From Squalus acanthias (lineage: Eukaryota): a stretch of DNA of 64,000 bases. Below are positions 7,190-64,000 of the stretch, in pieces; positions within the stretch are counted from its first letter, which is position 1, and the number at the start of each line of letters is the position of its first letter. The translations under genes and the position numbers were made by a program. Location: assembly GCA_030390025.1 (NCBI GenBank), contig CM059432.1, positions 13,268,001-13,332,000 on the forward strand, in the 5' to 3' direction. The notes beneath the pieces were generated by a model. The model did not search any database. It was given only the letters and a program-made list of their open reading frames with translations, and was not told the origin of the DNA.

Positions 7190-8950
7190 TTCAGACCCCC
7201 ACCACCCTCTGGGTGAAAACATCCCTCCTCAACTCCCCTCTATTCCTTCTACCAATTACTTTAAATCTATGCCCTCTGGTTATTGACCTCTCTGCTAAGG
7301 GAAATAGGTCCTTCCTATCCACTCTATCTAGGCCCCTGATAATTTTATACACCTCAATTAAATCTCCCCTCAGCCTCCTCTGTTCCAAAGAAAACAACCC
7401 CAGCCTCTCCAATCTTTCCTCATAGCTAAAATTCTCCAGTCCAGGCAACATCCTCGTCAATCTCCTCTGTACCCTCTCTAGTGAAATCACATCTTTCCTG
7501 GAATGTGGTGACCGGGACTGTATGCAGTACTCTAGCTGTGGCCTAACTAGAGTTTTATAAAGTTCAATCATAACCTCCCTGCTCTTGTATTTTATGCCTC
7601 AGCTAATAAAGGCAAGTTTTGGTTGTTGGAGACCAATCAGCTCAGCCCCAGGACATCGCTGCAGGAGTTCCTCAGGGCAGTGTCCTAGGACCAACCATCT
7701 TCAGCTGCTTTGTCAATGACCTTCCCTCCATCATAGGGTCAGAAGTGGGGATGTTCGCTGATGACTGCAGTGTTCAGTGCCATTCGCAACTCCTCAGATA
7801 ATGAAGTGGTTCGTGCCCGCACGTAGCAAGGCCTGGACAACATTCAGGCTTGGGCTGATAAGTGGCAAGTAATATTTGCGCCACACAAGTCCCAGGCAAT
7901 GACTACCTCCAATAAGAGAGAGTCTAACCACCGCCCCTTGATATTCAACGGCATTACCATCGCTGAATCCCACACCATCAGCATCCTGAGGGGGCGGGGG
8001 TCATCATTAACCAGAAACTTAACTGGACCAGCCACACAAATACTGTGGCTACAAGAGCAGGTCAGAGGCTGGGTATACTGCAGCGAGTGACTCACCTCCT
8101 GACTCCCCAAAGCCTTTCCACCATCTACAAGGCGCAAACCAAGAGTGTGATGGAATACTCTCCACTTGCCTGGATGAGTGCAGCTCCAACAACACTCAAG
8201 ATGTTCGACACCATCCAGAACAAAGCAGCCCGCTTGACTGGCACCCCAGCCACCACCTTAAATATTCACTCCCTCCACCACTGGCGTACCGTGGCTGCAG
8301 TGTGTACCATCTACAAGATGCACTGCAACAACTCGCCAAGGCTTCTTCAACAGCACCTCCAAAACCTGCAACCTCTACCACCTAGAAAGACAAGGGCAGC
8401 AGGATTATGGGAACACCACCACCTCCAAGTTCCCATCCAAGTCACACACCATCCTGACTTGGAAATATATCGCAGTTCCTTCATCGTCGCTGGGTCAAAA
8501 TCCTGGAACTCCCTCCCTAACAGCACTGTGGGAGTACTTTCACCACACGGACTGAAGTGGTTCAAGAAGGCAGCTCACCACCACCTTCTCAAGGGCAACT
8601 AGGGATGGGCAATAAATGCTGGCCTTGCCAGCGACGCCCACATCGCATGAATAAATTTTAAAAAATCCCGTATGCCTTCTTAACCACCTTATCTACCTGT
8701 CCTGCTTCCTTCAGGGATCTGTGGACATGCACTCCAAGGTCCCTCTGTTCCTCTACAGTTCTCAGTATCCTATCATTTATTGTGTATTCCCTTGCCTTGT
8801 TAGCCCTCCCCAAATGGATTGCCTCACACTTCTCCGAATTGAATTTGCCATTTTTCTGCCCACCTGACCAGTCCACTGATATCTTCCTGCAGTCTACAGT
8901 TTTCTTCCTCACTATCAACCACACGGCCAATTTTTGTATCATCTGCAAAT
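7190..8950 (-). mobile_element. CR1 ORF2 fragment split by a LINE at 7618-8660
   Basis: LYKTLVRPQLEYC...RGDLIEVYK; host sequence aaggcaagt|atcccgtatg rejoins across the insert. Confidence 0.88.
7618..8660 (+). mobile_element. Second CR1-group LINE (family B), 3' part
   Basis: [11 protein letters not shown] and MFADD RT motifs; tail gggatgggcaataaatgctggccttgccagcgacgcccac. Confidence 0.85.
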
Positions 8951-10779: not shown

Positions 10780-11147
10780 ATGTTAGATGGCTGTATACAT
10801 TCACTCCCTCCACCACCGGCGTACCGTGGCTGCAGTGTGTACAATCTACAAGATGCACTGCAGCAACTCGCCAAGGCTTCTTCGGCAGCACCTCCGAACC
10901 CGACGACCTCTTCCACCTAGAAGGACAAGGGCAGCAGACTCATGGGAACACCACCACCTCCAAGTTCCCCTCCAAGTCACACACCATCCTGACTTAGAAG
11001 CTATATCGCCGATCCTTCATCGTCGCTGGGTCAAAATCCTGGAACTCCCTCCCTAACAGCACTGTGGGAGCACCTTCACCACACGGACTGCAGCGGCTCA
11101 AGAAGGCGGCTCACCACCACCTTCTCAAGGGCAACTAGGGATGGGCA
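10780..11147 (+). mobile_element. Family B LINE 3' part; tail resumes at 13818-13863
   Basis: IHSLHHRRTVAAVCTIYKMH motif; tail broken at gggatgggca by the CR1 at 11148-13817. Confidence 0.8.
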
Positions 11148-13817: not shown

Positions 13818-15156
13818 TTGCAGCGACACCCACATCCCATAAAAACAAATTAAAAAAAAAAATATGGGGATAACAATGTTGGGAGCTTTTACCAAGGCTG
13901 CTAATATTTTGCAGGTATATTGTTTTCAACCTTTACAAAAGGTTATTTTAAAGTAACAAAAACATCTGGTAAATCCCAGTGGATCAATAAACTGGAGGCA
14001 GGAAGCTGATTGATGGAGCAGTGCAACACTCTAACCCCGTGTTTAGTGGCTGGCAAAGTTGAGGTGGTACTCCCTCTAAGGCAAGTATGTCTTTCCTTAG
14101 GTAAGGAGACCAGAATTGTACACAGTACTCCAGGTGTGGCCTCACCAATACCCTGAACATTTGTAGTAAGACTTCTTTACTCTTGTACTCTAATCCCTTT
14201 GTAACAAAAGCTAACATACCATTTGCTTTCCTCATTGCTTGCTGTACCTGCATGTTAACTTTCAGTGATTCATGTACAAGAACACCCAGATCCCTCTGAA
14301 TGCAAGCATTTCCCAGTCTCTCACCATTCAAAAAAATATTGTGCTTTTTTGTTTTTCCTACCAAAGTGGATAACGTTACACTTCCACACATTGTATTCCA
14401 TTTACCCACTCAGTCAACCTGTCTATATCTCTCTGCAGCCTCTTTGCATCCTCCTTACAGCTTACTTTCCCATCTAACTTTGTATAATCAGCAAACTTGG
14501 ATACGTTACACTCAGTCCCTTCATCTAAGTCATTAATATAGATTGTAAATAGCTGAGGCCCAAGCACTGATCCTTGCTAGTTACAGCCTGCCAACCCGAA
14601 AAGGTCCCGTTTATTCCTGCTCTCTGTTTTCTGTCCATTAACCAATCCTCAATCCATGCTAATATATTACCCCAATTTTGTATAATTACCTCTTGTGTGT
14701 CACCTTATAGAATGCTTTTTGAAAATCCAAATACACTACATCCACTGGTTTCCCCTTATCCATCCTACTAGTTACATCTTCAAAAAGCTCTAATAGATTT
14801 GTCAAACATGATTTCCCTTTCATAAAACCATGTTGACTCTGCCTAATCATATTACGATTTTCTAAGTGCCCTGTTACTACGTCCCTAATAATAGATTCTA
14901 GCATTTTGCCTACTACTGATGTCAGGCTAACTGGCTTATCGTTTCTCATTTTTTCTCTTCCTCCTTTCTTAAATAGCAGGGTTATGTTTGCTGCCTTCCA
15001 ATCCTTGGGGACTGTTCGAGAATCTAGGGAATTCTGGAAGATTAATACCAATGCATCCACTATCTCTGCAGCTACCTCTTTTAAAACCCTAGGATGCAGG
15101 TCGTCAGGTCCAGGGGATTTGTTGCCACCTCGTCCCATTAATTTCTCCAGCACTAT

Positions 15157-16040
15157 GGGGGAGAAATTCAGTATCGCCCCATTTGGGGCGCAATTATCGG
15201 CCGGGCGCAAAGATTAGCGCCTGGCGCTAATTATCGCCTCCGACTGCAAACTTGACCTTTATCGCCCCTGCAGGTGATTGGAGCGCTAAATCAGGCGCGT
15301 CACACCTGTCTTAAGGCGCAAAGGCCGAGGAGCGAGGCGCTACCTCAGAGCGCTGGCGAAGCTCATGTGATGTCAGTCAGCAATGGAACACACACACAAT
15401 GGCGCAGGCCAGTTCTTAAAGGGGAGGGTTGATCTTGCTTTCCATCCACATCCTGCTCATTGCAGCCTTGACTCTCGGCCTGGAGAGACCTGTACATCAA
15501 ATCTGCTGGTAAGAACAATGGAGAGTACCAGGGAAAGAGCTCAGAGTGCAGCCCCCACAGTCTCTTCTAAATCGATACAAGGAAGGGCAAATCAAAATGA
15601 ACCTGCAAAGTACTGCTCAGTACCCAAAACTCCTTCACACAGCGTTGAATCTCTCCAGAAGTCTCTCTCTCTCTCTCTCAGAATGCGTGGTTCAAAAATG
15701 TCACCAACAATAAAAGGCAGGAAGCGGTCGCCTTTAAATAGCGCTCCCCCGTCCCTTCCTGACGCTCCCCTCAACCTGTCGTTGCTAGCGGCAGGTGGTA
15801 AGGCAGGGGGCGCCACTCAATATCTGCTCCGGGGCGATACCGGGGCGTTGCGCACTCGACTGACGTCACGATCTGCCGGCGCAGGAGATCGTGGCGGTAG
15901 TGTTTAGTGCCGCCGCAAAATGTCTAGTTAATTTCGCGAGCGGCGCAAACATCGCCGCGCCCAGGCGCTAGTTGCTTTGCGCCCCATTAGCGCCCTCTTA
16001 AGGCGCTAACGGGAGGCGCAACCAACTGAATTTTTCCCCC
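15157..16040. mobile_element. PIF/Harbinger-type MITE (GGCGC-rich family)
   Basis: TIR GGGGGAGAAATTCAGT / ACTGAATTTTTCCCCC (15/16); TSD TAT. Confidence 0.9.
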
Positions 16041-18410: not shown

Positions 18411-18605
18411 CTCTATGACCTTGTGTTATTTAATTCAATTTGTATTTCAGCAACAGTTTAGTTTCTTGACTACTTACCTGATCTAGATTAAGTTATGGGT
18501 AAATGAAATTAAATATCTACCTGTAACAGAAAGCACTACAAGTAGTGGAGGCAAAAAGCAATATCTCCTTCCCCTTCTTCCCCGAATTCCCACTCTCCCC
18601 AAATT

Positions 18606-18881
18606 TTTTAATTCATTTATGGGATGTGGGCGTCGCTGGCAAGGCCAGTATTTATTGCCCATCTCTAGTTGCCCTCGAGAAGGTGGTCGTGAGCCGCCTT
18701 CTTGAACCGCTGCAGTCCGTGTGGTGAAGGTGCTCCCACAGTGCTGTTAGGGAGGGAGTTCCAGGATTTTGACCCAGCGACGATGAAGGATCGGCGATAT
18801 ATTTCCAAGTCAGGATGGTGTGTGACTTGGAGCGGAACTTAGAGGTGGTGGTGTTCCCATGCGCCTGCTGCCCTTGTCCTC
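18606..18881 (-). mobile_element. Family B LINE 3' end
   Basis: Reverse complement of the tail seen at 8390-8660. Confidence 0.85.
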
Positions 18882-21172: not shown

Positions 21173-22723
21173 GGGGGTAATATTGACTGCCTCCCCCCCG
21201 CCCCCCCAGGATGGGCAGGACAATGTCGGGGGTGGTGGGGGGAGGTTAAATTGTTAAAAATGGAAAACCCGACCACAACCTGCGGCGAACGCGTCTACCT
21301 CCAGGTTAACCAGGGTGGGTTTTGGGGCGAGACAAGTAACCCGCTCTGGAGAGGCGGGTCCGTGATTATAATATTTAAATGAAGCTCCTTGCCTCAGATT
21401 TTGTCAGTGACTTGGATTTAACGGCTGCGGGCCGGGTTTTCCAACACTGCTTGTGGGCCAGGAGGAGGAGATCTTCCCCCCGGCCCCCTCCCCCCAAGAA
21501 AACCTGCCACGATCGGCCTCCCCGTGCTCGGCCAACCACCTTCCCGCTGCAATCTGATCTCTCCCCGCTCCCGCGATCTCCCCCACCCCCGCGATCTCTC
21601 CCCGCTCCCGCGATCTCTCCCACTCCCGCGATCTCTCCCCACTCCTGCAATCTCCCCCACCCCCGCGATCTCACTCCCCGCGATCTCTCCCCGCTCCCGC
21701 GATCTCCCCCACCCCCGCGATCTCTCTCCCCGCGATCTCTCCCCACTCCTGCAATCTCCCCCCACCCCCCGCGATCTCACTCCCCGCGATCTCTCCCCGC
21801 TCCCGCGATCTCCCCCACCCCCGCGATCTCACTCCCCGTGATCTCTCCCCGCTCCCGCGATCTCCCCCACCCCCGCGATCTCTCCCCGCTCCCGCGATCT
21901 CCCCCACCCCCGCGATCTCTCTCCCCGCTCCTGCAATCTCCCCCACCCCCGCCAACGCTCTCTCCTCTCCAGCGATCTCCCCCACCCCCCCGTGATCTCT
22001 CTCCCTGCGATCTCTCCCCGCTCCCGTGATCTCCCCCACCCCCGCCAACGCTCTCTCCTCTCTAGCGATCACCTGATCTCCCCCCCACCCCCCGCGATCT
22101 CACTCCCCGCGATCTCTCCCACTCCCGTGATCTCCCCCACTCCCGCGATCTCCCCCACCCCCGCCAACGCTCTCTCCTCTGCAGCGATCTCCTGATCTCC
22201 TCCCCACCCCCCACGATCTCTCCCCGCGATCTCTCTCCGCTCCTGCGATCTCCCCCACCCCCCCGAGCTCTCTCCCCGCGATCTCTCCCCGCTCCTGCGA
22301 TCTCCCCCACCCCCGCCAATGCTCTCTCCTCTCCAGCGCTCTCCCCCCACGCACTCACCCCCGCCGAGCTCTCTCCCCGCGATCTCTCCCCCCGCCCACA
22401 ATCTCCGGTCACCCCGCCCCCCGTGATCTCTCCGTCCCTCCCTCCTCTCTGCTGCACTCCGAGCCCACCCCGAACCCCCCCAAGTCCCCCGATCTTCTCG
22501 ATTGCCGGGGAACGTCCCCAGCGGTCCCCGGCTGCTGCCTTGTAGCGCTGGCTTTCCGGTCCTTCAGCCTTCAATCTGGCTGGCAGGAAATGGAGTAAAA
22601 AAAAGTTGAAATGAGGTCCTGCCGTTAAATTTGTCAGGACCTCCACATTCCCAGCATTACCGGGTTTCCAGTCGCTGACAGGTGCCCCCACTCCCTCCCT
22701 GCCTCCCTGCCAATATCAGGGCC
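21173..22723. mobile_element. Harbinger-type MITE with expanded central minisatellite
   Basis: Imperfect TIR GGGGGTAATATTG / CAATATCAGGGCC; ATT on both sides. Confidence 0.7.
21550..22435. repeat. C-rich minisatellite, units about 16-20 nt with core cccgcgatctc
   Basis: Dozens of variant units visible directly. Confidence 0.95.
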
Positions 22724-23790: not shown

Positions 23791-24039
23791 TTACTCACTG
23801 AGCCAAACCGACACCTCATACACAAGTGGTCCTGCAGGTTAAAAGCTACACCACCTTTAGCCTGGAGAACCACTTCTACCTCAAGCAGCTCCTGGGTTGT
23901 AGAATTGACTCTATTCAGATTCCACAGAACAATGGAGAAAAACCTGCAGAGCAGAGCCACAATCGCATGCGTACATCTTCTCCCCGTAAGCCTAGCCTCA
24001 CTGCTGGGAAAAGTTCCTCCAGGCCAGCCACCGGCTCCG

Positions 24040-24260
24040 AGAGGGAGACATAGAGTGAGAGTAGGACAGAGAGAGTGAGTGGGACCAAGAGAGAGAGAGA
24101 GAGAGACAGGGAAGGAGTGTGTGTGAGAGTGAGAGTAGGACAGAGAGAGTGAGCGGGACCAACAGAGAGAGAGAGTGAGAGAGACAGGGAAGGAGTGTGT
24201 GTGACAGAGGGACAGAGTAGGAGAGACAGGGACAGTGTGTGAGAGAGGGACAGAGAGAGA
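24040..24260. repeat. Compound (GA)n/(GT)n purine-rich repeat
   Basis: Seen directly, with a higher-order duplication of about 73 bp. Confidence 0.9.
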
Positions 24261-24454
24261 GTTTTTACAATTATATTAGGAAAAAGAGGATAGTCAGGAG
24301 CAATGTTGGCCCCTTAAAAACTGAAAGCGGTGATATTATCAATGATGATAAGGAAATGGCGGACATGTTGAATAATTACTTTGCGACAGTATTTACAGTA
24401 GAGGAAGAGGATAGCATGCTATAAATCCCAAGGAAACTAATACTGAATCAGGGA

Positions 24455-33817: not shown

Positions 33818-34278
33818 AAGCTCAACTCCATCCAGGACAAAGCAGCCCACTTGACCGGCACCCCATCCACCACCATAAACATTCACTCCCTCCACCACCG
33901 GCGCACCGTGGCTGCAGTGTGTACCATCTGCAAGATGCACTGCAGCAACTCGCCAAGGCTTCTTCGGCAGCACCTCCCAAACCCGCGACCTCTTCCACCT
34001 AGAAGGACAAGGGCAGCGGCAGCAACACCACCACCTCCAAGTTCCCCTCCAAGTTACACACCATCCTGACTTAAAAGTATATCGCCGATCCTTCATTGTC
34101 GCTGGGTCAAAATCCTGGAACTCCCTACCCAACAGCACTGTGGGAGTACCTTCACCACACGGACTGCAGCGGTTCAAGAAGGCGGCTCGCCACCACCTTC
34201 TCAAGGGCAATTAGGGATGGGCAATAAATGCTGGCCTTGCCAGCGACGCCCACGTCCCATAAACGAATTTTTTTTTAA
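33818..34278 (+). mobile_element. Family B LINE 3' end
   Basis: IQDKAAHL...IHSLHHRRTVAAV and family B tail. Confidence 0.85.
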
Positions 34279-35049: not shown

Positions 35050-35985
35050 CACATTCCCACCCTCACCCCCACCTCCATATCCCCACTCCCTCACCCCCAC
35101 CCCCACCCCCTCACCCCCACATCTCCACCCCCTTACCCCCACCGTCACACCCCCTCACCCCTACCCTCACCCCCACACCCCTACCCTCACCCCCACCCTC
35201 ACCCTCTTACCCCCACCTCCGCATCCCCACCCCCTCACCCCCACCCCCTCACACATCCCCACCCCCTCACCCCCACCGCATCCCCACCCCCTCACCCCCA
35301 CCCTCACCCTCTTACCCCCACCTCCGCATCCCCACCCCCCACCCCCTCACACATCCCCACCCCCTCACCCTTACCCCTACCCTCACCCTCTTACCCCCAC
35401 CTACGCATCCCCACCCCCTCACCCCCACACCCCCACCCCCTCACCCCCACCGCATCCCCACCCCCTCACCCCCACCCCCTTACCCCTACCCTCACCCTCT
35501 TACCCCCACCTCCGCATCCCCACCCCCTCACCCCCACCCCCACCCCCTCACCCCCACCGCATCCCCACCCCCTTACCCCTACCCTCACCCTCTTACCCCT
35601 ACCCTCACCCTCTTACCCCCACCTCCGCATCCCCACCCCCTCACCCCCACCCTCACCCTCTTACCCCCACCTCCACATCCCCACCCCCTCACCCCCACCC
35701 CCACCGCATCCCCACCCCCTCACCCCCTTACCCCTACCCTCACCCTCTTACCCCTACCCTCACCCTCTTACCCCCACCTCCGCATCCCCACCCCCTCACC
35801 CCCACAGCATCCCCACCCCCTCACCCCCGCCCCCTTACCCCTACCCTAACCCTCTTACCCCCACCTCCGCATCCCCACCCCCTCACCCTCACACCATCAC
35901 CCCCACCGCATCCCCACCCCCTCACACCCACATCCCCACCCCCTCACACCCACACCCCCACCCTCTCACCGCACCCCCACCCCCC
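35050..35985. repeat. C-rich complex minisatellite
   Basis: Shuffled units ccccaccccctca / ccctaccctcaccctctta / cctccgcatcccca. Confidence 0.95.
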
Positions 35986-36415
35986 GTGGCTCCATCCCCG
36001 TTCTCGGGTTACCTCGGGAAACTCTTCTGCATCAGCTAACAACAGGCTTCTGAGCAACATTAGCAGAGGCCGAAAAGCAGCTCACCCCTTGCCCTTTCAA
36101 TCAGGAAATGGTGAATGGAAACCTCTTAAAAGGGAAGCGAGAAAAACACAAAAATAAATTATATTTCAAATCCTTTTGACACAAAGTAATACCATGGCCG
36201 AATCCCCCAGCATCAACATCCTGGGGGTCACCATTGACCAGAAACTTAACTGGACCAGCCACATAAATACTGTGGCCACAAAAGCAGGTCAGAGGCTGGG
36301 TATTCTGCGGTGAATATCTCACCTCCTGACTCCCCAAAGCCTTTCCACAAGGCACAAGTCAGGATACTCTGCACTTGCCTGGATGAGTGCAGCTCCAACA
36401 CTCAAGAAGCTCGAC

Positions 36416-38895
36416 AATGTGGTTGACTCTTAACTTCCCTAGCAAGCCACTCAGTTGTAACAAACCGCTACGAAAAACAGTATTAAGAATGAAACTGGAC
36501 GGACCACCCGGCATCGACCTCGGCACCGGCTACAGACACGGCAACAGCACACCCAGCCCAGTCAACCCTGCAAAGTCCTCCTCACCAACATCTGGGGAAT
36601 TGTGCCAAAATTGGGAGAGCTGTCCCATAGACTAGTCAAGCAACAGCCTGACAAAGTCATACTCACAGAATCATACCTTTCAGCCAATGTCTCAAACTCC
36701 ATCACCATCCCTGGGTATGTCCTGTCCCACCAGCAGGACAGACCCACCAGGGGTGGCGACACAGTGGTATACAGTCGGGAAGGAGTGGCCCTGGGAGTCC
36801 TCAATATTGACTCCGGACCCCATGAAGTCTCATGGCTTCAGGTCAAGCATGGGCATGGAAATCTTCTGCTGATTACCACCTACTGCCCTCCCTCAGCTGA
36901 TGAATCAGTACTCCTCTTGAACACCACTTGGAAGAAGCACTGAGAGTAGCAAGGACACAGAATGTACTCTGGGTGGGGGACTTCAATGTCCATCACCAAG
37001 AGTGGCTCAGTAGCACCACTACTGACCGAGCTGGCCGAGTCCTGAAGGACATAACTGCCAGTCTGGGCCTGCGACAGGTGAAAAGAGAACCAACACGAGG
37101 GAAAAACCTACTTGACCTCGTCCTTACCAATCTACCTGTCGCAGATGCATCTGTCCATGAGAGTATTGGTAGCAGTGACCACCGCACAGTCATTGTGGAG
37201 ACGAAGTCCCGTCTTCACACTGAGGACACCCTCCATCGTGTTGTGTGGCACTACCACCGTGCTAAATGGGATAGATTCTGAACAGATCTAGCAGCTCAAA
37301 ACTGGACATCCATGAGGCGCTGTGGGCCATCAGCAGCAGCAGAATTGTATTCCACCACAATCTGTAAACTCATGGCCCGGCATATCCTTCACTCTACCAT
37401 TACCATCAAGCCAGGGGACCAACCCTGGTTCAATAAGGAGTGTAGAAGAGCATGCCAGGAGCAGCACCAGGCGTACCTAAAAATGAGGTGCCAACCTGGG
37501 GAAGCTGCAACACAGGACTACATGCATGCTAAAAAGCAGAAGCAGCATGCTATAGACAGGGCTAAGCAATCCCACAATCAACGGATCAGATCAAAGCTCT
37601 GCAATCCTGCCACATCCAGTCGTGAATGGTGGTGGACCATTAAACAACTAACGGGAGGAGGAGGCTCCAGGAATATCCCCATCCTCAATGATGGTGGAGC
37701 CCAGCACGTGAGTGCAAAAGACAAGGCGAAGCGTTTGCAACCGTCTTCAGCCAGAAGTGCCGAGTGAATGATCCATATCGGCCTACTCCTGAGGTCCCCA
37801 CCATCACAGAAGCCAGTCTTCAGCCAATTCGATTCACTCCACGTGATATCAAGAAACGGCTGAGCGCACTGGATACAGCAAAGGCTATGGGCCCTGACAA
37901 CATCCCGGCTATCGTGCTGAAGACTTCTGCTCCAGAACTAGCCGCGCCTCTAGCCAAGCTGTTCCAGTACAGCTACAACACTGGCATCTATCCAACAATG
38001 TGGAAAACTGCCCAGGTATGTCCTGTCCACAAAAAGCAGGATAAATGCAACCCGGCCAATTACCGCCCCATCAGTCTACTCTCAATCATCAGCAAAGTGA
38101 TGGAAGGTGTCATCAACAGTGTTATCCAGCGGCACTTACTCACCAATAACCTGCTCACTGATGCCCAGTAAGGGTTCCGCCAAGACCACTCGGCTCCCGA
38201 CCTCATTACAGCCTTGGTCCAAACATGGACAAAGGAGCTGAATTCCAGAGGTGAGGTGCGAGTGACTGCCCTTGAAATCAAGGCAGCATTTGACCGAGTG
38301 TGGCATGAAGGAGCCGTAGTAAAACTGAAGTCAATGGGAATTGGAGGGAAAACTCTCCACTGGCTGGAGTCATACCTAGCACAAAGAAAGATAGTTGTGG
38401 TGGTTGAAGGTCAATCATCACAGCCCCAGGACATTGCTGCAGGAGTTCCGCAGGGCTGTGTCCTCGGCCCAACCAGCCCGTTTGATTGGCACCCCATCCA
38501 CTCCCTCCACCACCGGCGCACCGTGGCTGCAGTGTGTACCATCTACAAGATGCACAGCAGCAACTCGCAAAGGCTTCGTCGACAGCATCTCCCAAACCCG
38601 CGACCTCTACCACCTAGAAGGACAAGGTCAGCAGGCGCATGGGAACACCACCACCTCCAAGTTCCCCTCCAAGTCACACACCATCCTGACTAGGAAATAT
38701 AATCGCCGTTCCTTCATCGTCGCTGGGTCAAAATCCTGGAACTCCCTCCCTAACAGCACTGTGGGAGTACCTTCACCACACGGACTGCAGCGGTTCAAGA
38801 AGGCGGCTCACCACCACCTTCTCAAGGGCAACTAGGGATGGGCAATAAATGCTGGCCTTGCCAGCGACGCCCACATCCCAGGAACAAAAACAAAA
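36416..38895 (+). mobile_element. Family B LINE, longest copy (endonuclease + RT, internal deletion near 38475)
   Basis: ILTESYL, VGDFNVHH, SDH, KAMGPD, NYRPISLL, KAAFD, PQG motifs; tail intact. Confidence 0.9.
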
Positions 38896-39263
38896 AGATC
38901 ATTGTGAAATAAGGCACTGGCGGGCATACGATTTGTTGAATAAAATGGATTGTACATTTGCCAACTGTAAACCAGGAATGTACTGTAAGAATGCATTAAG
39001 AGATAGCTAGGGGTTCAGAAACAATTCACATTCTCATAAAACAACAGCATGAAAATTACTTTACCAAATAGGACAATAATTTAAATCGTGTACCCTTTAA
39101 AATGTCAAGCATTTGCCGCCCCACATTTTTCGTCAATTATCATTAACTTTCGCTTCTATTTCTTACTTGCTGGTTTGTTCTGTTTGAATTTTGTTAGCCT
39201 GGAGGTTTGGAAAGTACTATTCTTATCACTGTTGCTTCATAAATCCTAAATCGGAACATCAAC

Positions 39264-40714: not shown

Positions 40715-43700
40715 TTGACATGAAGCCTTGTACTTGTCTCTCTGACGGAACAAGGTGTTGGTTATGACAAGGCCATGTTCTAAGCATTTCGACAGGAGGA
40801 GGGGACCGTTGGAGTTGGCTTACTCTACCCCCTCTCTGCCGATCACACCTCCCCAGAGGTCAGTGTCCTTTCCAACTCTAGCATTAAAGTCTCCAAGGAG
40901 GATCAGCTTGTCGCCCGTTGGGACTCGGGACAGGGATTGTTCGAGGCTGGAGTAGAATTCCTCTTTGGTCTCGTCTGTGGCTTCCAGTGTTGGGGCGTAC
41001 GCACTGATGACCGTAGCGCACTGGTTCCGGGCTAGGGTGAGCCGAAGAGTCATGAGGCGCTCGTTTATTCCACAAGGGGAGTCTCTGAGACGCCCAACTG
41101 GTTCATTTTTTATGGCGAAGCCTACCCCATGGAGGCGGCGTTCTTCTTCAGGTTTGCCTTTCCAGAAGAAGGTGTAGCCACCGCCTTGCTCCTTGAGCTG
41201 GCCTTCCCCTGCCCGCCGGGTCTCACTTAGGGCAGCAATGTCAATGTCGAAACGTCTGAGCTCCCGGGCAACGATAGCAGTACGGCATTCCAGTCTGTCG
41301 CTGTTGGGGTTGTCCATGAGGGTCCTGACATTCCAGGTCCCGAACTTCATTTTAAAGGGTGGAAGATGCCTGTGCGTGAATTCTTTTAATGTGGGGTGGC
41401 CGTTGCACACCAGCTACCACACGGGCTTGACAGAGCAAGGTCTTGGTCCAATGGCAAGGGGATCCAAGACAATTGGAGACCAGGCTCTGCTACAACGGCC
41501 TAGCACACACACACAAACATAATGCTACTGTCCTCCTCCCTCCTTCCCACAGGTCCTCTCTGCCTGGGTTTCGTAGGATGCATTGTGGTCCTCCCGACCT
41601 CGCTGTTGGCCCGTGCCGCACCTTCCCTGGGCCCCGACCCCGCTGCTGGTCCACGCTGCGCCACTCCTGGTCCTCGACCTCGCTGCTGGGCTCGTCCTCG
41701 CTCCTGGGTCCCGGCCTCGGACATGAATGATGTTGTCTCTCCAAGCACTGGCACCTGCTGGACTACGTCATCGTCCGAGCGAGGGACCGCAAGGACGTCC
41801 GCATCACCCGCGCCATGACAGGAGCTGACGACTGCTGGACAGACCACCGCCTAATCCGCTCTGTCATCTCCATCAATGTAGCCCCAAAACAGCGGCGGCA
41901 ACAGAAACAATGCCGCAGGAAAATTAACGCTGGAGCACTCAAAGACCCTGCTAAGAAGGGCCCTATTCAGCCTGTGCCTCACAAACAACCTGACGACTCC
42001 CAGTGATGCAGAGACACAGAGTGCCCACAGCGCCTGGTCTGCACTCAAGGCCTCCATAATCAGCACCTGTGAAGAGACGCTCGGTCACTCGACCAGGAAA
42101 CATCAAGACTGGTTCGACGAGAACGACCAGGAGATCCAGGCGCTAATAAGCCGCAAGCGCAAGGCATTCCTGATCGGGAAACAGCAGCAGAACTCGAGAG
42201 CAATAAAGCAGCTCTACAGACGCCTGAAGGCCGAGGTCCAAAAAAAAACTCGCAACCTAAAGAACAGATGGTGGGTGGAGAAAGCGCTGGAGATCCAGCA
42301 GCTAGCCGACAACCACGACGTGCGTGGATTCTTTAGCGCAGTCAAGACCATCTACGGCCCAAGCACCTAAGGCCCTACCCCACTGCAGGCCAAGAACGGA
42401 GAGGTACTCATCAAGGACAGAGAGGCAGTCAGTGCCCGCTGGAAGGAGCACGTCGAAGATCTCCTTAACCGAGACTCTGTCTTCGACACAAGTGTCCTCA
42501 ACTCCATCCTGCAGTATGCTACCCGCCACCATCTCAGCACAACCCCAGCCCGGCATGAGGTTGAAAAGGCCATCCGACAACTGAAGAACAACAAGGCCTC
42601 AGGAGCAGATGGAATCCCCGCTGAGGCACTAAAGCATGGCAGAGAAGCACTACTGGCGCGAATTCATGAACTCATTTCTCTTATATGGAAGGAGGAGAGC
42701 ATGCCAGGGGATCTCAGAGATGCCGTAATTGTGACCATCTTCAAGAAAGGTGACAAGTCCGATTGCGGTAATTACAGAGGAGTTTCCCTGCTGTCTGCCA
42801 CAGGGAAAGTCATCACAAGAATCCTCCTCAATCGCCTTCTCCCAGTGGCCGAAGAGCTCCTCCCAGAGTCGCAATGCGGATTCTGCCCACAAAGGGGCAC
42901 GATGGACATGATCTTCACCGCACGTCAATTGCAAGAGAAATGCAGGGAACAGCACCAACCGCTGTACATGGCCTTCTTTGATCTCACAAAGGCCTTCGAC
43001 ACTGTCAACCGTGAGGGATTATGGAGTGTCCTCCGCAAATTCGGCTGCCCTCAAAAGTTTGTCACCATCCTCCGCCAGCTTCACGACGACATGCAAGCCA
43101 ACGGTTCCACCACAGACCCAATTCACGTATGAACCGGGGTCAAGCAAGGCTGTGTCATCGCACCAACGCTCTTCTCGATCTTCCTTGCTGCAATGCTCCA
43201 TCTCACCCTCAGTAAGCTCCCTGCTGGAGTGAAGCTAATTTACAGAACAAACGGGAAACTGTTCAACCTCCGTCGCCTCCAGTCCAGATCCAAGGTCGTC
43301 CCATCCACTGTCGTCGAATTACAGTATGCAGACGACGCTTGCGTCTGCGCTCACTTGGAGGTCGAACTCCAAACCATCGTCAACACCTTCACCGAAGCGT
43401 ACGAGAGCATGGGCCTTACACTAAACATCCGTAAGACAAAGGTCCTCTACCAACCTGCCCCTGCCACACAGTACTGCCCCCCGATTATCAAAATCCGCGA
43501 TAAGGCCTTGGACAACGTGGACCACTTTCCATACCTCGGGAGCCTACTGTCAACAAGGGCAGACGTCGACGACGAAGTCCAACACCGCCTTCAGTGTGCC
43601 AGTGCAGCCTTCGGTCGCCTGAGGAAGAGAGTGTTTGAAGACCAGGACCTCAAACCCGGCACTAAGCTCATGGTCTACAGAGCAGCAGTGATACCCGCCC

Positions 43701-44135
43701 TGCTGTATGCCTCAGAGACATGGACCATGTACAGCAGGCACCTCAAAGCACTGGAGAGGTACCACCAACACTGCCTCTGCAAGATCCTGCAAATCCATTG
43801 GCAGGATAGGCGCACCAACGTCAGTGTTCTTGCTCAGGCCAACATCCCCAGCATCGAAGCTTTGACCACGCTCGATCAGCTCCGATGGACAGGTCACATT
43901 GTCCGCATGCCCGATACGAGATCCCAAAACAAGCGCTCTCCTCGGAGCTCCGGCACGGCAAGAGAGCCCCAGGTGGGCAGAGGAAACACTTCAAGGACAC
44001 CCTCAAAGCCTCCTTGAAAAAGTGTAACATCCCCACCGACACCTGGGAATCCCTGGCCCAAGACCGCACAAAGTGGAGGAGAAGCATCCGGGAAGGCGCC
44101 GAATACCTCGAGTCTCTTCGCCGGGAGCAAGCGGA
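40715..44135 (+). mobile_element. RTE/BovB-like LINE with inverted 5' segment; 3' tip missing
   Basis: Minus 40715-41500: MKFGTWNVRTL...SETR...LGDFNARVG...TNTLF; plus 41740-44135: SKHWHLLDY...YADD...KASLKK. Confidence 0.92.
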
Positions 44136-44614
44136 GAGGAGTCATGTGCCACCTTCACTGTGACACCTTCACTGTGATGACATCACATTCGACTGCAGGG
44201 ATAGTTTACTTTGGTGCAATTTACAAAGAAATGAGAAAGATGATTGCCAAGCACTACAACATGAAAACATTCATCAAAAGGGAAAAATCAAAACATTGCA
44301 AAATTGGATAAAGGAAAACAATAATCTACGTCAGTGACCAAAGGGCAGCTTTTCAATGTTTTGAGCAGCCGCTATCCAACAGACAACCCTGATGTGAGAT
44401 GGAGAACAACATAAAACCACAATAAAAGAGGCAGCCTTCCTTCCATTCTGACTCAGATAACCAACAGATTTGAATAACTTGCAAAGTCGACTAATTTTAG
44501 CCCGAATGTGTCACCGTGCCCAGTAAGGGAGTGCTGATGCGCACACTTGGCTCTCAAGCTTGGATTATGACAAAGAAACACTCCAGAGGCTTGAGCACAT
44601 AATCTGGGCTGACA

Positions 44615-45790: not shown

Positions 45791-46038
45791 CTTAATTACA
45801 AATTATATTTGCATTTTGTGTTTTTAAATGTAACGAGGGGACTCCCCATCCATCACTGTAACTGTTATTTTGTATCCTGTTTGATACTAAAATAGTAATG
45901 TAAACATCTCCCTCTTTTGGTGATCTGAGTCAGAAGGCGACGAAATCTCAGCTACCGAATTTGTATTCTAATTATTTTTCCTCAACAGTTTGCTCTCCTC
46001 TTCTGAAGACATTGACATCGTGCAGGTGTAGTCTCACG

Positions 46039-46542
46039 ATCTTGCTCAGACCAACATCGCCAGCATCGAAGCTTTGACCACGCTCGATCAGCTCCAATGG
46101 ATGGGTCACATTATCCGCATGCCCGATACGAGACTCCCAAAACAAGCGCTCTACTCGGAGCTCCGGCACGGCAAGAGAGCCCCAGGTGGGCAGAGGAAAC
46201 GCTTCAAGGACACCCTCAAAGCCTCCTTGGAAAAGTGTAACATCCCCACCGACACATGGGAATCCCTGGCCCAAGACCGCACAAAGTGGAGGAGAAGCAT
46301 CCGGGAAGGCGCCGAACACCTCGAGTCTCTTCGCCGGGAGCAAGCGGAAGCCAAGCGCAGGCAGCGCAAGGAACGCACGTCAACCCAAGCACCCCACCCA
46401 CCCGTCCCTTCAACCACTGTCTGCCCCACCTGTGACAGAGACTGTAGGTCCCGCATTGGACTCACCAATCACCTGAGAACTCATTTTTAATGTGGAAGCA
46501 AGTCATCCTCGGTTCCGAGGGACTGCCTAAGAAGAAGAAGAA
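46039..46542 (+). mobile_element. RTE/BovB-like LINE, 5'-truncated
   Basis: C2H2 end CPTCDRDCRSRIGLTNHLRTH; (GAA)n tail; TSD GTAGTCTCACG at 46028-46038 and 46543-46553. Confidence 0.93.
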
Positions 46543-47580
46543 GTAGTCTCACGGGTGCAGACTCCCTTCTGGTATCTTGCCCACGTGGCAAATGAAATTT
46601 TTACCGACAAATGCAAAATATGATGTATTTGATGGACTGAGCTACATCAGTATACAATGAAAAAACAGAATGAGTATATGGTGACTTAGAAAGAGACCTG
46701 GGAGTATCATTGTTGAGACAATGTGGAAAGGCAATTAAATAGCTAAACAGAATATTGGGATACATATCCAGAACAGTGAAGTATAAAGTGGTTATACCAA
46801 GTTGTTATAATGCACTGGCCAAAACACATCGTTGGACCAAAATTGCTGAAGGGTGAGAGGACACAAAGCGGGCGGGGGCAGGAATTCGGGTTAGTACCCA
46901 GATCTCCCAGGTTTCTGCCCCAGGAAGAGTCTCCCAAATGTGGCTGGGGTCTGCTACTTGCCCCAGACCAACACAGCCAGCTTTGGGGGACTGCCTTGGG
47001 GCGTCCCTGGACTACACACAAACTCCAGTCAGTAAACCCTCATGTTTTGGCATTTTTTTTTTGACCATTTTTTTTCAACCGAAAGAATTGAGGGGAAAAA
47101 AAGCTACTCTTAAATGCTGTGCATTTTAAAGCCTAGTGTATCCGCATAATTGTTTTTAAAAGGCCGAGACTAACAGCTATTTAAGATGCTAACAAGCCAG
47201 CTTTGATGTTACTTCCCGCAGACTGTAAATAAGAAGCAATATATTAGATTGTCTCAGTGATGAATAAATACGTCACACCCATTGTGTTGAGCAGTTATTT
47301 TCTAAATGGTCAGAAGCTAGGAACTATGGAGGAGCCGAGAGATTTAGGGCTCCAAGTACAGAAATCACTAAAAGCTTGTGGCCAGGTACAAACCATTTAT
47401 AAGGCTACTGGAATGTTGGCCTTTATCTCAAGGGATCTGGAATACAAAGGGGTGGAAGTTAGGTGACAGTGTACAGAGCTCTGGTGAGACCCCATCTGGA
47501 GAACTGCATTCAGTTCTGGGCATCGCACCCCAGAAAGGAGATATTAGCCTTGGAGCGGGTGTAGCGCAGATTCACCAGAA

Positions 47581-51430: not shown

Positions 51431-52006
51431 TGTAAGGGCGAAAAATTACACTTAGGAAGAATAAGGGAGGTAAAGGGTGTTTTAGAAGATTTAGGATAAG
51501 GCTGAGTTAAGCAACTGGCAGGACATAGGTATAATCTCGCTCAAACTGGTTTTGTGCTGACAATAACCGCATTTGCTTGTTTCTCACTGTGAGAGTAGGG
51601 TTGCGAAATACCGACATGTCACGCAAAACGGTATAGTAATATAATTAAGTTGTTTTTGAAAGAAGTTAGCTAACGGTATAGTAATATAATTAAGTTGTTT
51701 TTGAAAGAAGTTAGCTAACGGTATAGTAATATAATTAAGTTGTTTTATAATTAAGTTGTCTTTGAAAGAATGTGATTGAAGGTTGCTAAGGTACCGGATT
51801 GGCCAAAGAATTAATGTAATAACTGCTGATATCAGTACCTTTCCGTTTTTTTTGAACTGTATAAAAGAAGCTCGGCTGCCATTGTAAAACCGAGAAGAGG
51901 GTTATTAGACTGCGGAGTTTTTTGAACCCTTCTCCCGAAGCGCTTCGTATAATAAACTGTGTGCCTTTACCTTAAACAGAGGAGAGTGAATTTATTTACA
52001 CTAACA
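51431..52006 (+). mobile_element. Solo LTR, 576 bp
   Basis: TG...CA ends (TGTAAG / CTAACA); 5-bp TSD GGCTA; TATAAAA 51860-51866; AATAAA 51951-51956. Confidence 0.88.
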
Positions 52007-52289
52007 GGCTAACCGGTCTGTAGTTCCCTGTTTTCTCTCTCCCTCCTTTTTTAAATAGTGGGGTTACATTTGCCACCCTCCAATCTGCAGGAACTGTTCC
52101 ATAATCTATAGAATTTTGGAAGATGACAACCAATGCATCCATTATTTCCATGGCTACCTCTTTTAGTACTCTGGGATGCAGATTATCCGGCCCTGGGGAT
52201 TTATCGGCTTTCAGTCCCATTAATTTCTCCAGCATTATTTTTTTACTAATACTAATTTCCTTTAATTCCTCCTTCTCACTAGACCCTTG

Positions 52290-52741
52290 GTGCAGGTTCA
52301 TTTTGATTTGCCATTCCTTGTATCGATTTAGCAGAGACTGTGGGAGCTGCACTCTGAGCTCTTTGCCTGGTACTCTCCATTGTTCTTTCCAGCACATTTG
52401 ATGTGCAAGTCTCTCCAGGCCGAGATTCAAGGCTGCAATGAACAGGATGTGGATGGAAAGCAAGATTAACCATCCCCTTTAAGAACTGGCCCGTGCCATT
52501 GTGTGTGTGTTCCATTGCTGACTGACATTACATGAGCTTCGCCAGCGCTCTGAGTTAGCGCCTCACTCCTTGGCCTTTGCGCCTTAAGACAGGTGTGCAG
52601 CGCCTGCTTTAGCGCTCCACTCACCTCCCGGGGCGGTAAAAGTGAAGTTTCCAGTCAGTGCCGATAATTAGCGCCAGGCGCTAATATTTGTGTCCAGACG
52701 ATATTTGCGCCCCAAATGGGGCGCGACCTAATTTCTACCCC
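52290..52741. mobile_element. One-ended copy of the GGCGC-rich MITE family
   Basis: Inverted homolog of 15157-15607; surviving TIR AATTTCTACCCC; TTG on both sides. Confidence 0.82.
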
Positions 52742-54227: not shown

Positions 54228-55595
54228 TCATAGAATTACATAGAATTTTACAGCACAGAAGCAGGACAATCGGCCCATCTGCCCCATGCCGGTGTTTATG
54301 CTCCACACAGGCCTCCTCCCACCCTGCTTCATCTCAGCCTATCAGCATATCCTTCTATTCCTTTCTCCCTCATGTACTTATCCAGCTTCCCCTTAAATGC
54401 ATCTATGCTAGTCGCCCCAACCACTCCATGTGGTAACAAGTTCCACATTCTCACCACTCTCTGAGTAAAGATGTTTCTCCTGAATTTCTTGTTGGATTTG
54501 TTAGTGTCTATCTTACGTTTATGGTCCCTAGTTTTAGACTCCCCCCACAACTGGAAACATCTTCTCTACGTATACCCTATTGTGAGTTGTGAGGAGGATG
54601 CAAAGAGGCTTCCAGGTGATTTAGACAAGTTGAGTGAGTGGGCAAATACATGGCAGATGCAGTATTACATGGATAAATGTGAAGTTATCCACTTCGGTAG
54701 GAAAAACAGAAAGGCAGACTATTATTTAAATGGTGATAGTTTGGGAAATATTGATGTACAAAGGGACCTGGGTGTCCTTGTACACCAGTCACTGAAAGCA
54801 AACATGTAGGTGCAGCAAGCAGTTAGGAAGGAAAATGGCATGTTGGCCTTCATTGCAAGAGGATTTGAGTACAGGAGCAAGGATGTCTTACTACAGTTGT
54901 ACAGGGCCTTGGTGAGACCACACCTGGAGTACTGTGTGCAGTTTTGGTCTCCTTACCTAAGAAAGGATATACTTGCCATAGAGGGAGTGAAGCGAAGGTT
55001 CACCAAAGTGATTCTGGGGATGGCAGGACTGTCGTATGAGAAGAGATTGGGTCGACTAGGCCTATATTCACTAGAGTTTAGAAGAATGAGGGGATCTCGT
55101 GGAAACGTATAAAATTCTGACAGGGCTAGACAGACTGGATGCAGGGAGGATGTTTCCCCTGGCTGGGGGGTCTAGAACGAGGGGTCACAGTCTCAGGATA
55201 CGGGGTAGGACATTTAGGACTGAGATGAGGAGAAATTTCTTAACTCAGAGGTGAACCTGTGGAATTCTCTACCACGGAAGGCTGTGGAAGCCAAGTCACT
55301 GAATATATTTAAGAAGGAGATAGATAGATTTCTAGTCACAAAAGGCATCAAGGGGTATAGGGAGAGAGCGGGAATATGGTATTGCTATAGAGGATCAGCC
55401 ATGATCATATTGAATGGCGGAGCAGGCTCGAAGGGCCGAATGGCCGACTCCTGCTCCTATTTTTCTATGAACCGCTTCATAATTTTAAAGACCTCTATTA
55501 GGTCATCTCTCAGTCTTCTCTTTTCTCGAGAAAAGAGCCCCAGCCTGTTCAGCCTCTCCTGATAGTTGTATCCTCTCAGTTCTGGTCTCATCCTT
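54228..55595 (-). mobile_element. CR1 3' fragment split by a plus-strand CR1 (54580-55467)
   Basis: Minus-strand element resumes near 55470; the insert has its own 3' tail. Confidence 0.82.
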
Positions 55596-62046: not shown

Positions 62047-62574
62047 GAGGTCTCTCCATCATATGATAACGCCCCTTCTTACAGGGACCATCGCTGCTTT
62101 GGGAGGGAATGATTCTGGAACAATATTCATAATTTTCATTCCAGATGAGTCACAACCCTGCTTTTTGCAATGTAAATGATGTATATGAACAGAGAGAGAA
62201 ATCGCCGAACTAACTCATAAAGCCAATGACACCCTTTTAAAAAGCAGTTTTCTCCAATCAAGTCGCACAATAAATGCAATCATTAATGCCTGAAAAGAGT
62301 AGCTTACGATCGCAACATTAGAGGTTTTTCAAGATCTGTAATCAGGTTCTGCAAATAGCCGACGTGGGCTGGAACACACTTCCCCTTTTACAAATAGACC
62401 CGTACTGTGCAACATCCTCTGCCAGTGTTTTACTGTGAAAAAAAGTGCCCTTAAGCACATTTTCCACAGCACAGTCCATACTTCTGGTGCAGAGAGAGGA
62501 TCAGCCATGATCATAGTGAATGGCGGAGCAGGCTCGAAGGGCCGAATGGCCTACTCCTGCTCCTATTTTTCTAC

Positions 62575-63200
62575 GCCACATTGAAGGCGGCGATAGGCAA
62601 GGAGGGTTGGCATTTTTGCTCGTCAGAGTCACTCTTCTCAGAAAGCAGCAGGTAGCAAAGCAAGTGAATGCAGTTTCTGCAGTAAAGAGATCTTCCTCCC
62701 AGATGAGGAAGAAATTCATCACTTTGAAGAAGTTTGCCACGGTAAGTGACCACTGTTCTTATATCTCAACAGAGCTTACCAATGGCATGCCTGCAACACA
62801 CACACTCACACATACACTTTTCCCTCAACGAGATGCATACTCGCATGCAATGCTTCCCATGTCTTTACATGCCCCTTTGCTCTCTCTAACACTGACAGAA
62901 GGCACCCATATTCATGTACGACACACATTTCATCTTCCGTGCAAACCTGTCACTGGTGGAGAGTGGGACCATGACACATTTCCCACCCGCACCCCCCCCC
63001 CCCCCCGCCCCGTACCCATTAGCATTTTTGTCATGAAGCACAGTGGCCAACTGCGTAGCTGTTGCAAAGTTCACGAAAAAACAATTCATCAGTCTCATGA
63101 CTGCAAGAAGAGGAAGTCCAGAATAGCAGGGAAAGGCTGAAAATTGGAGGGGGCACTGCAAATGTCAAGCCCTTGCCACGCTGGAGAGGAGCATGCAGAC
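62575..63200 (+). pseudogene. Decayed Myb/SANT-like DNA-binding ORF of Harbinger type, two exon-like segments
   Basis: QQVAKQVNAVSAVKRSSSQMRKKFITLKKFAT|gtaagt (62742), then EEEVQNSRERLKIGGGTANVKPL at 63107-63175. Confidence 0.65.
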
Positions 63201-63311
63201 AAAGAACCTTCATCTGCAGACCAGTACCCATTCTTCCATCTTTCTCCCTCCTCAAAGAATTAGTCCTTCATTCTGCAATAGGAACTGAGCTGCCATTACT
63301 ACCTCACATGC

Positions 63312-64000
63312 GTTGGCCTGAGCGGGAACACTGACGTTGGTGCGCCTATCCTGCCAATGGATTTGCAGGATCTTGCGGAGGCACCATTGGTGGTACCTCT
63401 CCAGTGCTTTGAGGTGCCTGCTGTACATGGTCCATGTCTCTGAGGCATACAGCAGGGCGGGTATCACTGCTGCTCTGTAGACCATGAGCTTAGTGCCGGG
63501 TTTGAGGTCCTGGTCTTCAAACACTCTCTTCCTCAGGCGACCGAACGCTGCACTGGCACACTGAAGGCGGTGTTGGACTTCGTCATCGACGTCTGCCCTT
63601 GTTGACAGTAGGCTCCCGAGGTATGGAAAGTGGTCCACGTTGTCCAAGGCCTTGTCGTGGATTTTGATAATCAGGGGGCAGTACTGTGTGGCGGGGGCAA
63701 CATCCCCAGCATCGAAGCTTAGACCACGCTCGATCAGCTCCGATGGACGGGTCACATTTTCCACATGCCCGATACGAGACTCCCAAAACAAGCGCACTAC
63801 TCGGAGCTCCGGCATGGCAAGAGAGCCCCAGTGGGGAGAGGAAACACTTCAAGGACACCCTCAAAGCCTCCTTGAAAAAGTGCAACATCCCCACCGACAC
63901 CTGGGAATCCCTGGCCTAAGACCGCACAAAATGGAGGAAAAGCATCCGGGAAGGCGCCGAACACCTCGAGTCTCTTCGCCGGGAGCAAGCGGAAGCCAAA
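63312..64000 (+). mobile_element. RTE/BovB-like LINE with inverted 5' segment, running off the window
   Basis: 63312-63699 is the reverse complement of about 43455-43843; 63698-64000 matches 43840 onward. Confidence 0.92.

Follow-up and report, generated by a model that had tools for sequence, protein, structure and literature searches.

We put at roughly 0.8 the probability that the RTE-type LINE copy at the right end of the window (63312-64000, copy F) is one insertion made by twin priming. The window is the whole stretch of DNA that we analysed, 64,000 nucleotides long; it is repeat-rich eukaryotic sequence, with a G+C content of ~47% and many CR1-like fragments. In the covered parts of PMC2912911, twin priming is described as a process in which one target end primes at the 3' end of the RNA and the other pairs with the RNA internally, after which the cDNAs anneal at a short complementarity. 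The initial annotation had claimed that this RTE family can use twin priming, and the claim is supported by the geometry of copy F, a probable 4-nt microhomology at its outer joint, a probable empty site in a relative, and a second inverted copy (B).

Three copies of the LINE family are present in the window, F, B (40715-44135) and C (46039-46542), and tblastn with three homologues found no other close family copies in it. The blastn results show that F 63312-63699 is the reverse complement of B 43456-43843, with 376 of 388 positions identical and without gaps, and that F 63695-63993 matches B 43837-44135 in the forward direction (284/300 identical); the forward arm is likewise close to copy C (286/303 identical). 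By tblastn, the inverted arm corresponds to residues 792-918 of the full-length homologue P0007 (1063 aa) on the minus strand, and the forward arm to residues 918-1019 on the plus strand. Thus, the earlier description of a reverse-complement arm running upstream from a point P, followed by a forward arm from P, is borne out by both types of alignment. The same holds for the description of the inner joint as a junction through CA without foreign DNA: exactly two letters fit both arms, no flank DNA is present at the joint, and the arms are contiguous in element coordinates. Taken by itself, the 2-nt overlap lends little weight to our reading, and it is the contiguity at P that carries the case. 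The motif CAAC (B 43840-43843) was also correctly reported in both arms, which overlap by 4 nt in element coordinates; however, its left copy, which reads GTTG at 63312-63315, is probably target DNA and not element sequence copied twice, as suggested by a contig from a related organism (X21 record 19, see below). The element match of copy F has its left edge at 63312, to the left of which blastn against the window copies gave no element match, and no 12-mer from the end of the left flank is repeated elsewhere in the window. Based on the offset from copy C, the tail of F is expected to end near 64187, past the window edge. Copy F is a dead, 5'-truncated and 5'-inverted copy of ~0.88 kb without any sign of function. 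We also considered whether P is an open site on the RNA. In the predicted fold, P lies at a loop edge, but as 23% of 4-mers are equally open, the fold provides no evidence for this idea.

Table 1. Coordinates of the RTE-type copies in the window and of their joints and flank.
Feature	Positions	Strand	Description
Left flank of copy F	62920-63311	.	Free of RTE sequence; its orthologue in organism I is the apparently empty site
Left-hand target-site duplication copy of F, predicted	63304-63315	+	10-12 nt ending at 63315; predicted from the organism I contig and the published RTE peak
GTTG	63312-63315	+	Organism I contig (X21 record 19) fits through 63315
Copy F, inverted arm	63312-63699	-	RTE-type LINE sequence upstream from P; blastn against B, tblastn
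Inner (inversion) joint of F	63698-63699	+	CA, 2-nt microhomology fitting both arms; 0 inserted letters
Copy F, forward arm	63698-64000	+	From P (B 43840) toward the 3' end; runs off the window
Copy B, inverted arm	40715-41719	-	~370 nt putative 5' region and endonuclease domain (P0007 residues 1-210)
Copy B, filler at the inner joint	41720-41737	+	18 nt, degenerate direct copy of the start of the B inverted arm (40717-40742)
Copy B, forward arm	41738-44135	+	P0007 residues 216-1017 with RT domain; 3' end and duplication missing
Copy C	46028-46553	+	Ordinary 5'-truncated copy with C-terminal zinc finger and (AAG)n tail; reference for the family 3' end

The described traits of the family fit a placement in the RTE clade. 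The homologues of the element are single proteins of ~1050-1100 aa with an endonuclease and an RT, and copy B, when its flip is allowed for, is collinear from residue 1 with such homologues of 1056-1063 aa. The closest named protein homologue belongs to the shark Heptranchias perlo (77% identity, covering 77% of the query), and the host is therefore probably a cartilaginous fish. The RT piece of B is 42-77% identical to database homologues and 32% identical to the CR1-like RT of the window, and, among solved structures, the closest ones are those of L1 ORF2p (E about 1e-26) and of R2 proteins. One relative of the element carries the name 'craniofacial development protein 2-like', a name that goes with RTE-type endonucleases. 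Copy C carries an (AAG)n tail and is flanked by a target-site duplication of 11 bp (46028-46038 and 46543-46553), so that the RTE-type tail and duplication length are found in one copy (n=1); its zf-C2H2 match (E 3.5e-4) is below the curated cut-off. In the parts of the literature covered, the RTE clade is characterized by a 5' UTR that is short and by one ORF (PMC13174262; PMC5389967), by a full length that is 3.2-3.9 kb in Anolis (PMC5389967), and by a microsatellite-like 3' tail with duplications mostly of 7-15 bp (PMC6007223), whose peak at 10-12 bp is also quoted in PMC4245944. Copy B, 3.42 kb long although ~0.2 kb is missing at its 3' end, falls within the RTE full-length range. The 5' truncation of copy C (~B 43828) lies ~12 nt from point P of copy F (B 43840); with these two copies only, this is perhaps an indication of a spot near P at which reverse transcription tends to stall.

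Copy B is a near-full-length, 5'-inverted member of the same RTE-type family. P0007 residues 1-210 match it on the minus strand (41350-40721) and residues 216-1017 on the plus strand (41740-44136) by tblastn, and its domains are recognized by Pfam as Exo_endo_phos (E 4.4e-11) and RVT_1 (E 4.8e-20 and 9.8e-11). The arms of B do not overlap and leave a gap of ~5 codons in element coordinates. The filler at its inner joint and the four bases after it form a repeat of the start of the inverted arm, with an alignment score that was matched by none of 1905 random 35-nt pieces of B; the filler and the arm start have an 8-mer and a 9-mer in common. At the outer joint of B, one codon reads Cys although it encodes Trp in all 109 homologues bearing the motif (out of 204 proteins), and the same letter recurs in the filler. 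The simplest reading of these letters would be that the Cys letter was contributed by a target end whose pairing to the RNA contained one mismatch, and that, prior to the joining of the ends, the first cDNA went on to copy some of the top strand. We found no target-site duplication for B; its left flank has two 7-mers in common with 44100-44600, no more than expected by chance. Likewise, no 3' end of B was found after 44135. The region upstream of its start codon (41351-41719, minus strand), whose G+C-rich first half is single copy in the window, may be the 5' UTR of the element or read-through from the source locus. Two of the three RTE copies in the window are thus inverted. As copy F prompted the search, the fair count is one of the two others, an outcome with a probability of 0.19 if 10% of copies are inverted and 0.02 if 1% are.

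Four sequencing runs out of the 24 listed with the left flank were compared, all as contigs: X1 and X5 from organism A (two samples, two studies), X19 from organism H and X21 from organism I. In each of the four runs there are contigs from other copies of the family that connect 63312/63316 with 63702/63698 on opposite strands, with 4 letters that match either side. Straight read-through at P is supported, over two joint rows, by 8, 3, 7 and 15 contigs per run among those listed. The family contigs therefore cross P uninterrupted in 4/4 runs, which identifies F as the rearranged copy.

Among the X21 contigs, record 19 (524 letters, depth 8.9, similar to that of neighbouring contigs) fits 62920-63315 with its letters 102-495, with 30 differing letters and 14 gaps, and then continues with 101 letters that do not fit. 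Because minus-strand records are numbered in their own direction, these 101 letters sit to the right of 63315. X21 records 11 and 20 would otherwise begin exactly at 63312, and records 15 and 23 end exactly at the inner joint. Record 19 is most likely the empty orthologous site in organism I, a reading taken from the end coordinates of one contig, with the joints being those among the matches listed; an uninverted copy in organism I is unlikely. The fit of this contig extends through 63312-63315, precisely the four bases common to both arms of F (chance p 0.0025), which suggests that the left GTTG is probably the target DNA that primed on the RNA at P. Measured from the 63315 end coordinate of this one organism I contig, the outer microhomology of F, between the target end and the element, is 4 nt. 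Organism I differs from the flank in the window by about 6-8% (27/444 and 30/396 letters) and F from B by 3-5%, values that would be compatible with an insertion of F after the lineages of the window and of organism I split.

As regards an uninverted allele or orthologue, the four runs can be summarized as follows. In X5, record 26 fits 62688-63339 and hence contains the inverted outer joint, as flank plus 28 letters of the inverted arm, a length below our 31-letter bridging rule. X21 looks empty, and the flank contig of X1 (record 3) stops at 63310, short of the element. X19, which has no piece at the outer joint among the matches listed and is without coverage near 63040-63105, carries no information. 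Among the pieces listed for the four runs, none crosses the inner joint at 63699 and none extends to the tail of F. Together with the end of the X1 contig at 63310, this would be in keeping with an assembly or library chimera, but X5 comes from a different study and links the flank to the inverted arm over its 28 letters. Considering, in addition, the microhomologies at the joints and the templated filler in B, which likewise argue against such an artefact, we regard a chimera as scarcely credible.

The contigs also yielded side observations. One X21 contig (depth 124) has an opposite-strand joint at 63535/63601 within RTE sequence, possibly another inversion of this family in organism I. X21 records 18 and 19 overlap by 5 nt at 62920-62924 and each have 27-29 further letters that do not fit, a pattern as of an insertion with a 5-bp duplication that is absent from the window. 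Further upstream, a 68-nt CR1-like 3' fragment occupies 62495-62562. The fit of organism H and I contigs to the window breaks off at ~62494, where these contigs have 280-293 letters that do not fit; the orthologous site thus differs there.

It could also be argued that copy F represents two RTE insertions that occurred independently, in opposite orientations, at a single site. The family is abundant, as summed contig depth amounts to about 1e6 for the element, compared with 10-35 for the flank, a figure that is not a copy number, and over 297 columns private changes are somewhat more numerous in the forward arm of F (10) than in B (4) or C (6). However, the minus-strand piece lacks both a 3' part and a tail, and right up to its edge the flank matches the site of the relative. 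Moreover, the two pieces adjoin at one and the same element position, to within 4 nt in F and ~5 codons in B, and the divergence of the two F arms from B (12/388 for the inverted and 15/297 for the forward arm) is not significantly different (Fisher p 0.24). Two separate insertions are therefore, in our opinion, highly improbable.

The initial annotation stated that the geometry marks twin priming. The geometry does fit, but the statement is slightly too strong, because a truncated copy that was flipped later between GTTG and CAAC would give identical letters, duplication included. In such a scenario, a plain 5'-truncated RTE copy would have had a TG microhomology to the flank, and its first 384 nt would have been inverted through repair or replication template switching at the 4-nt inverted repeat formed by GTTG at the flank end and CAAC at P. 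This history yields the exact letters: both the end of the flank and B 43456-43457 read TG, and GTTG is the reverse complement of CAAC. In addition, templated filler of the kind found in B is a known product type of repair-type template switching. On the other hand, the left breakpoint of a later flip would have to coincide with the 5' junction of the element, though 4-nt inverted repeats are ubiquitous. The outer joint of copy B, too, consists of element and not of flank, according to tblastn, and the inverted outer joint of F is present in a second sample (the 28 letters of X5). A further argument against a later inversion is that none of the 22 same-strand CR1-like blocks of the window contains a flip that is contiguous in element coordinates. 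Taking these points together, we consider a later inversion unlikely.

The CR1-like blocks, which are mostly short and of mixed age, also serve as a modest control for the inversion of the RTE copies. Two candidates for a flip among them were discarded. Firstly, the flip-like signal of 14923-15607 versus 52005-52741 is due to an unrelated element nested in two CR1 copies of opposite orientation, and is not a CR1 inversion. Secondly, the pieces of an opposite-strand CR1 pair at 54339-55456 overlap in element coordinates. The repeats at 15157-16039 and 52291-52741 are one family (91% alike over 451 nt) that lies inside two CR1-like copies, in opposite orientation and at nearby CR1 positions, possibly reflecting a target preference. 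Another young LINE family, distinct from the RTE type and with copies ~92% alike, is present at 36400-38900, with shorter copies at 8264-8667, 10798-11147, 18604-18880 and 33880-34267; there are no flips among its 9 listed pieces. Degenerate C-rich and GA-rich tandem arrays are located at 21531-22432, 24034-24263 and 35062-36066.

How the insertion of copy F might have proceeded by twin priming can be outlined in four steps. First, the endonuclease of the element would have nicked the bottom strand and reverse transcription would have started at the 3' tail of the RNA, as is established for LINEs. Second, the top strand would have been cut early, and its 3' overhang ending in GTTG would have paired with CAAC of the same RNA at P, priming a second cDNA that ran 384 nt upstream; the position of this arm is seen directly, and the target origin of GTTG is deduced from the contig of one relative. 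Third, the first cDNA would have halted at the bases occupied by the primer, which would account for the observed start of the forward arm with CAAC. Finally, the two cDNA ends would have paired over 2 nt (CA/TG), the overlap present at the inner joint, followed by fill-in and ligation. Copy B would be the record of a second such event. In PMC2912911, as far as covered, outer-joint microhomologies of 2-5 bp are given for ~70% of 605 5'-inverted L1 copies, so that the 4 nt of F would be typical.

The likely enabling factor is the stagger of 10-12 nt of this family, which would be long enough for pairing with the RNA, as opposed to ~5 nt in L2/CR1; here we extend the model of PMC4245944. According to the covered sections of that study, an overhang of ~5 nt is too short for pairing with the RNA, inverted L1 inserts have duplications of 10-20 bp, and 5' inversion is proposed to depend on host conditions as well as on a long 3' overhang. 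By this measure, a stagger of 10-12 nt as in RTE would be sufficient and that of CR1 (3-5 bp) too short, in agreement with the pattern in the window. The order of events and the role of overhang length in copy F are what we infer from these considerations.

A rearrangement during integration that does not involve priming of RT on the RNA would be an alternative to twin priming, and might have occurred by host end-joining (polymerase-theta-like) or by snap-back of a longer first-strand cDNA. Snap-back junctions to antisense sequence are known for insertions driven by R2 protein (PMC11371274, covered in part), and the templated filler at the inner joint of B points to host end-joining. Snap-back should, however, produce an inverted arm that duplicates part of the forward arm, and the arms overlap by only 4 nt in F and not at all in B. 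Besides, it is the sense strand at P to which the target end is complementary, and until the second strand is synthesized this strand would be present as RNA only. In view of this, we find such a rearrangement rather improbable, and we continue to favour twin priming.

We also searched for relatives outside the window. Exact-pattern scans for the family gave no matches in metagenome contigs, 1 in viral contigs and 40 in bacterial genomes; none of these 41 loci aligns to B over >40 nt, and we discarded them as chance matches. A protein-profile scan of metagenome contigs, of which the best 80 of 488 matches were analysed, resulted in 70 loci of distant relatives. The inversion geometry was present in 0/70 of these loci and pieces on both strands in 2/70. 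This result is uninformative, because the majority of the loci are full-length and probably represent collapsed repeats, and only 8/70 contain a 5'-incomplete copy together with flank. The protein-profile scan of viral contigs gave no relative.

The mechanism itself is already known; what is new, as far as the literature covered shows, is the RTE clade and the host. In the covered parts of PMC4245944 and PMC2912911, 5' inversion is treated as near-exclusive to L1 in human or mammalian cells. PMC4245944, in the same parts, reports 5' inversions solely for human L1 in cells of human origin, with one Nimb-2 insert as the exception; RTE was not among the elements tested. A further article (PMC4476161), as far as covered, states that L2 and RTE elements make U6 chimeras solely via template switching. 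We found no RTE 5' inversion in the parts of this literature that were covered. The copies described here raise the possibility that the mechanism of 5' inversion may not be special to mammals.

A broader view would be that twin priming is a routine outcome for the RTE LINEs of a cartilaginous fish, affecting about one tenth of long copies or more, while CR1 in the same genome does not invert; we see the chances of this as evenly balanced. If it were true, inversion would be set by the overhang that the element's own endonuclease leaves (at least 10 nt), and not by L1 ORF1p or mammalian host factors, and 5' inversion would arise in a single-ORF element. An inverting RTE family with 11-bp duplications beside non-inverting CR1, in one non-mammalian genome, would be a natural test that separates the contribution of the element from that of the host. 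The value of the F locus is that it invites a family-wide test, with a second example 20 kb away. There are also practical consequences: repeat annotation would break up inverted copies like F into two insertions, and inverted inserts are unwanted by-products of gene-writing tools derived from non-LTR elements.

Ostertag and Kazazian are said to have put forward the twin-priming model for L1 in 2001. Compared with mammalian twin-primed L1, as described in the covered parts of PMC2912911 and PMC4245944, copy F is alike in having an inverted 5' arm that abuts a forward 3' arm, a microhomology of 2-5 nt with the target end at the outer joint, and a short microhomology at the inversion joint. The elements and hosts differ: the family of F is an RTE-type, single-ORF family with an (AAG)n tail in a non-mammalian host, whereas mammalian L1 has ORF1 and poly(A). 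RTE-clade LINEs of the RTE-1 and Bov-B type resemble the family described here in their one ORF with endonuclease and RT, short 5' region, length of ~3.6 kb and microsatellite tail, and, in the case of copy C, in the 11-bp duplication. The 5'-inverted Nimb-2_DR insert in chicken DT40 cells (PMC4245944, covered in part) is, like F, an inversion of a non-L1 LINE in a non-mammal; it has a duplication of ~12 bp, belongs to a different clade and was one event in cell culture, whereas here there are two genomic RTE-type copies. Finally, the R2 cDNA snap-back in the covered part of PMC11371274 and copy F both join flank to antisense element sequence, but R2 snap-back duplicates sequence held by the cDNA, whereas the inverted arm of F is derived from upstream of its forward arm, with an overlap of 4 nt only.
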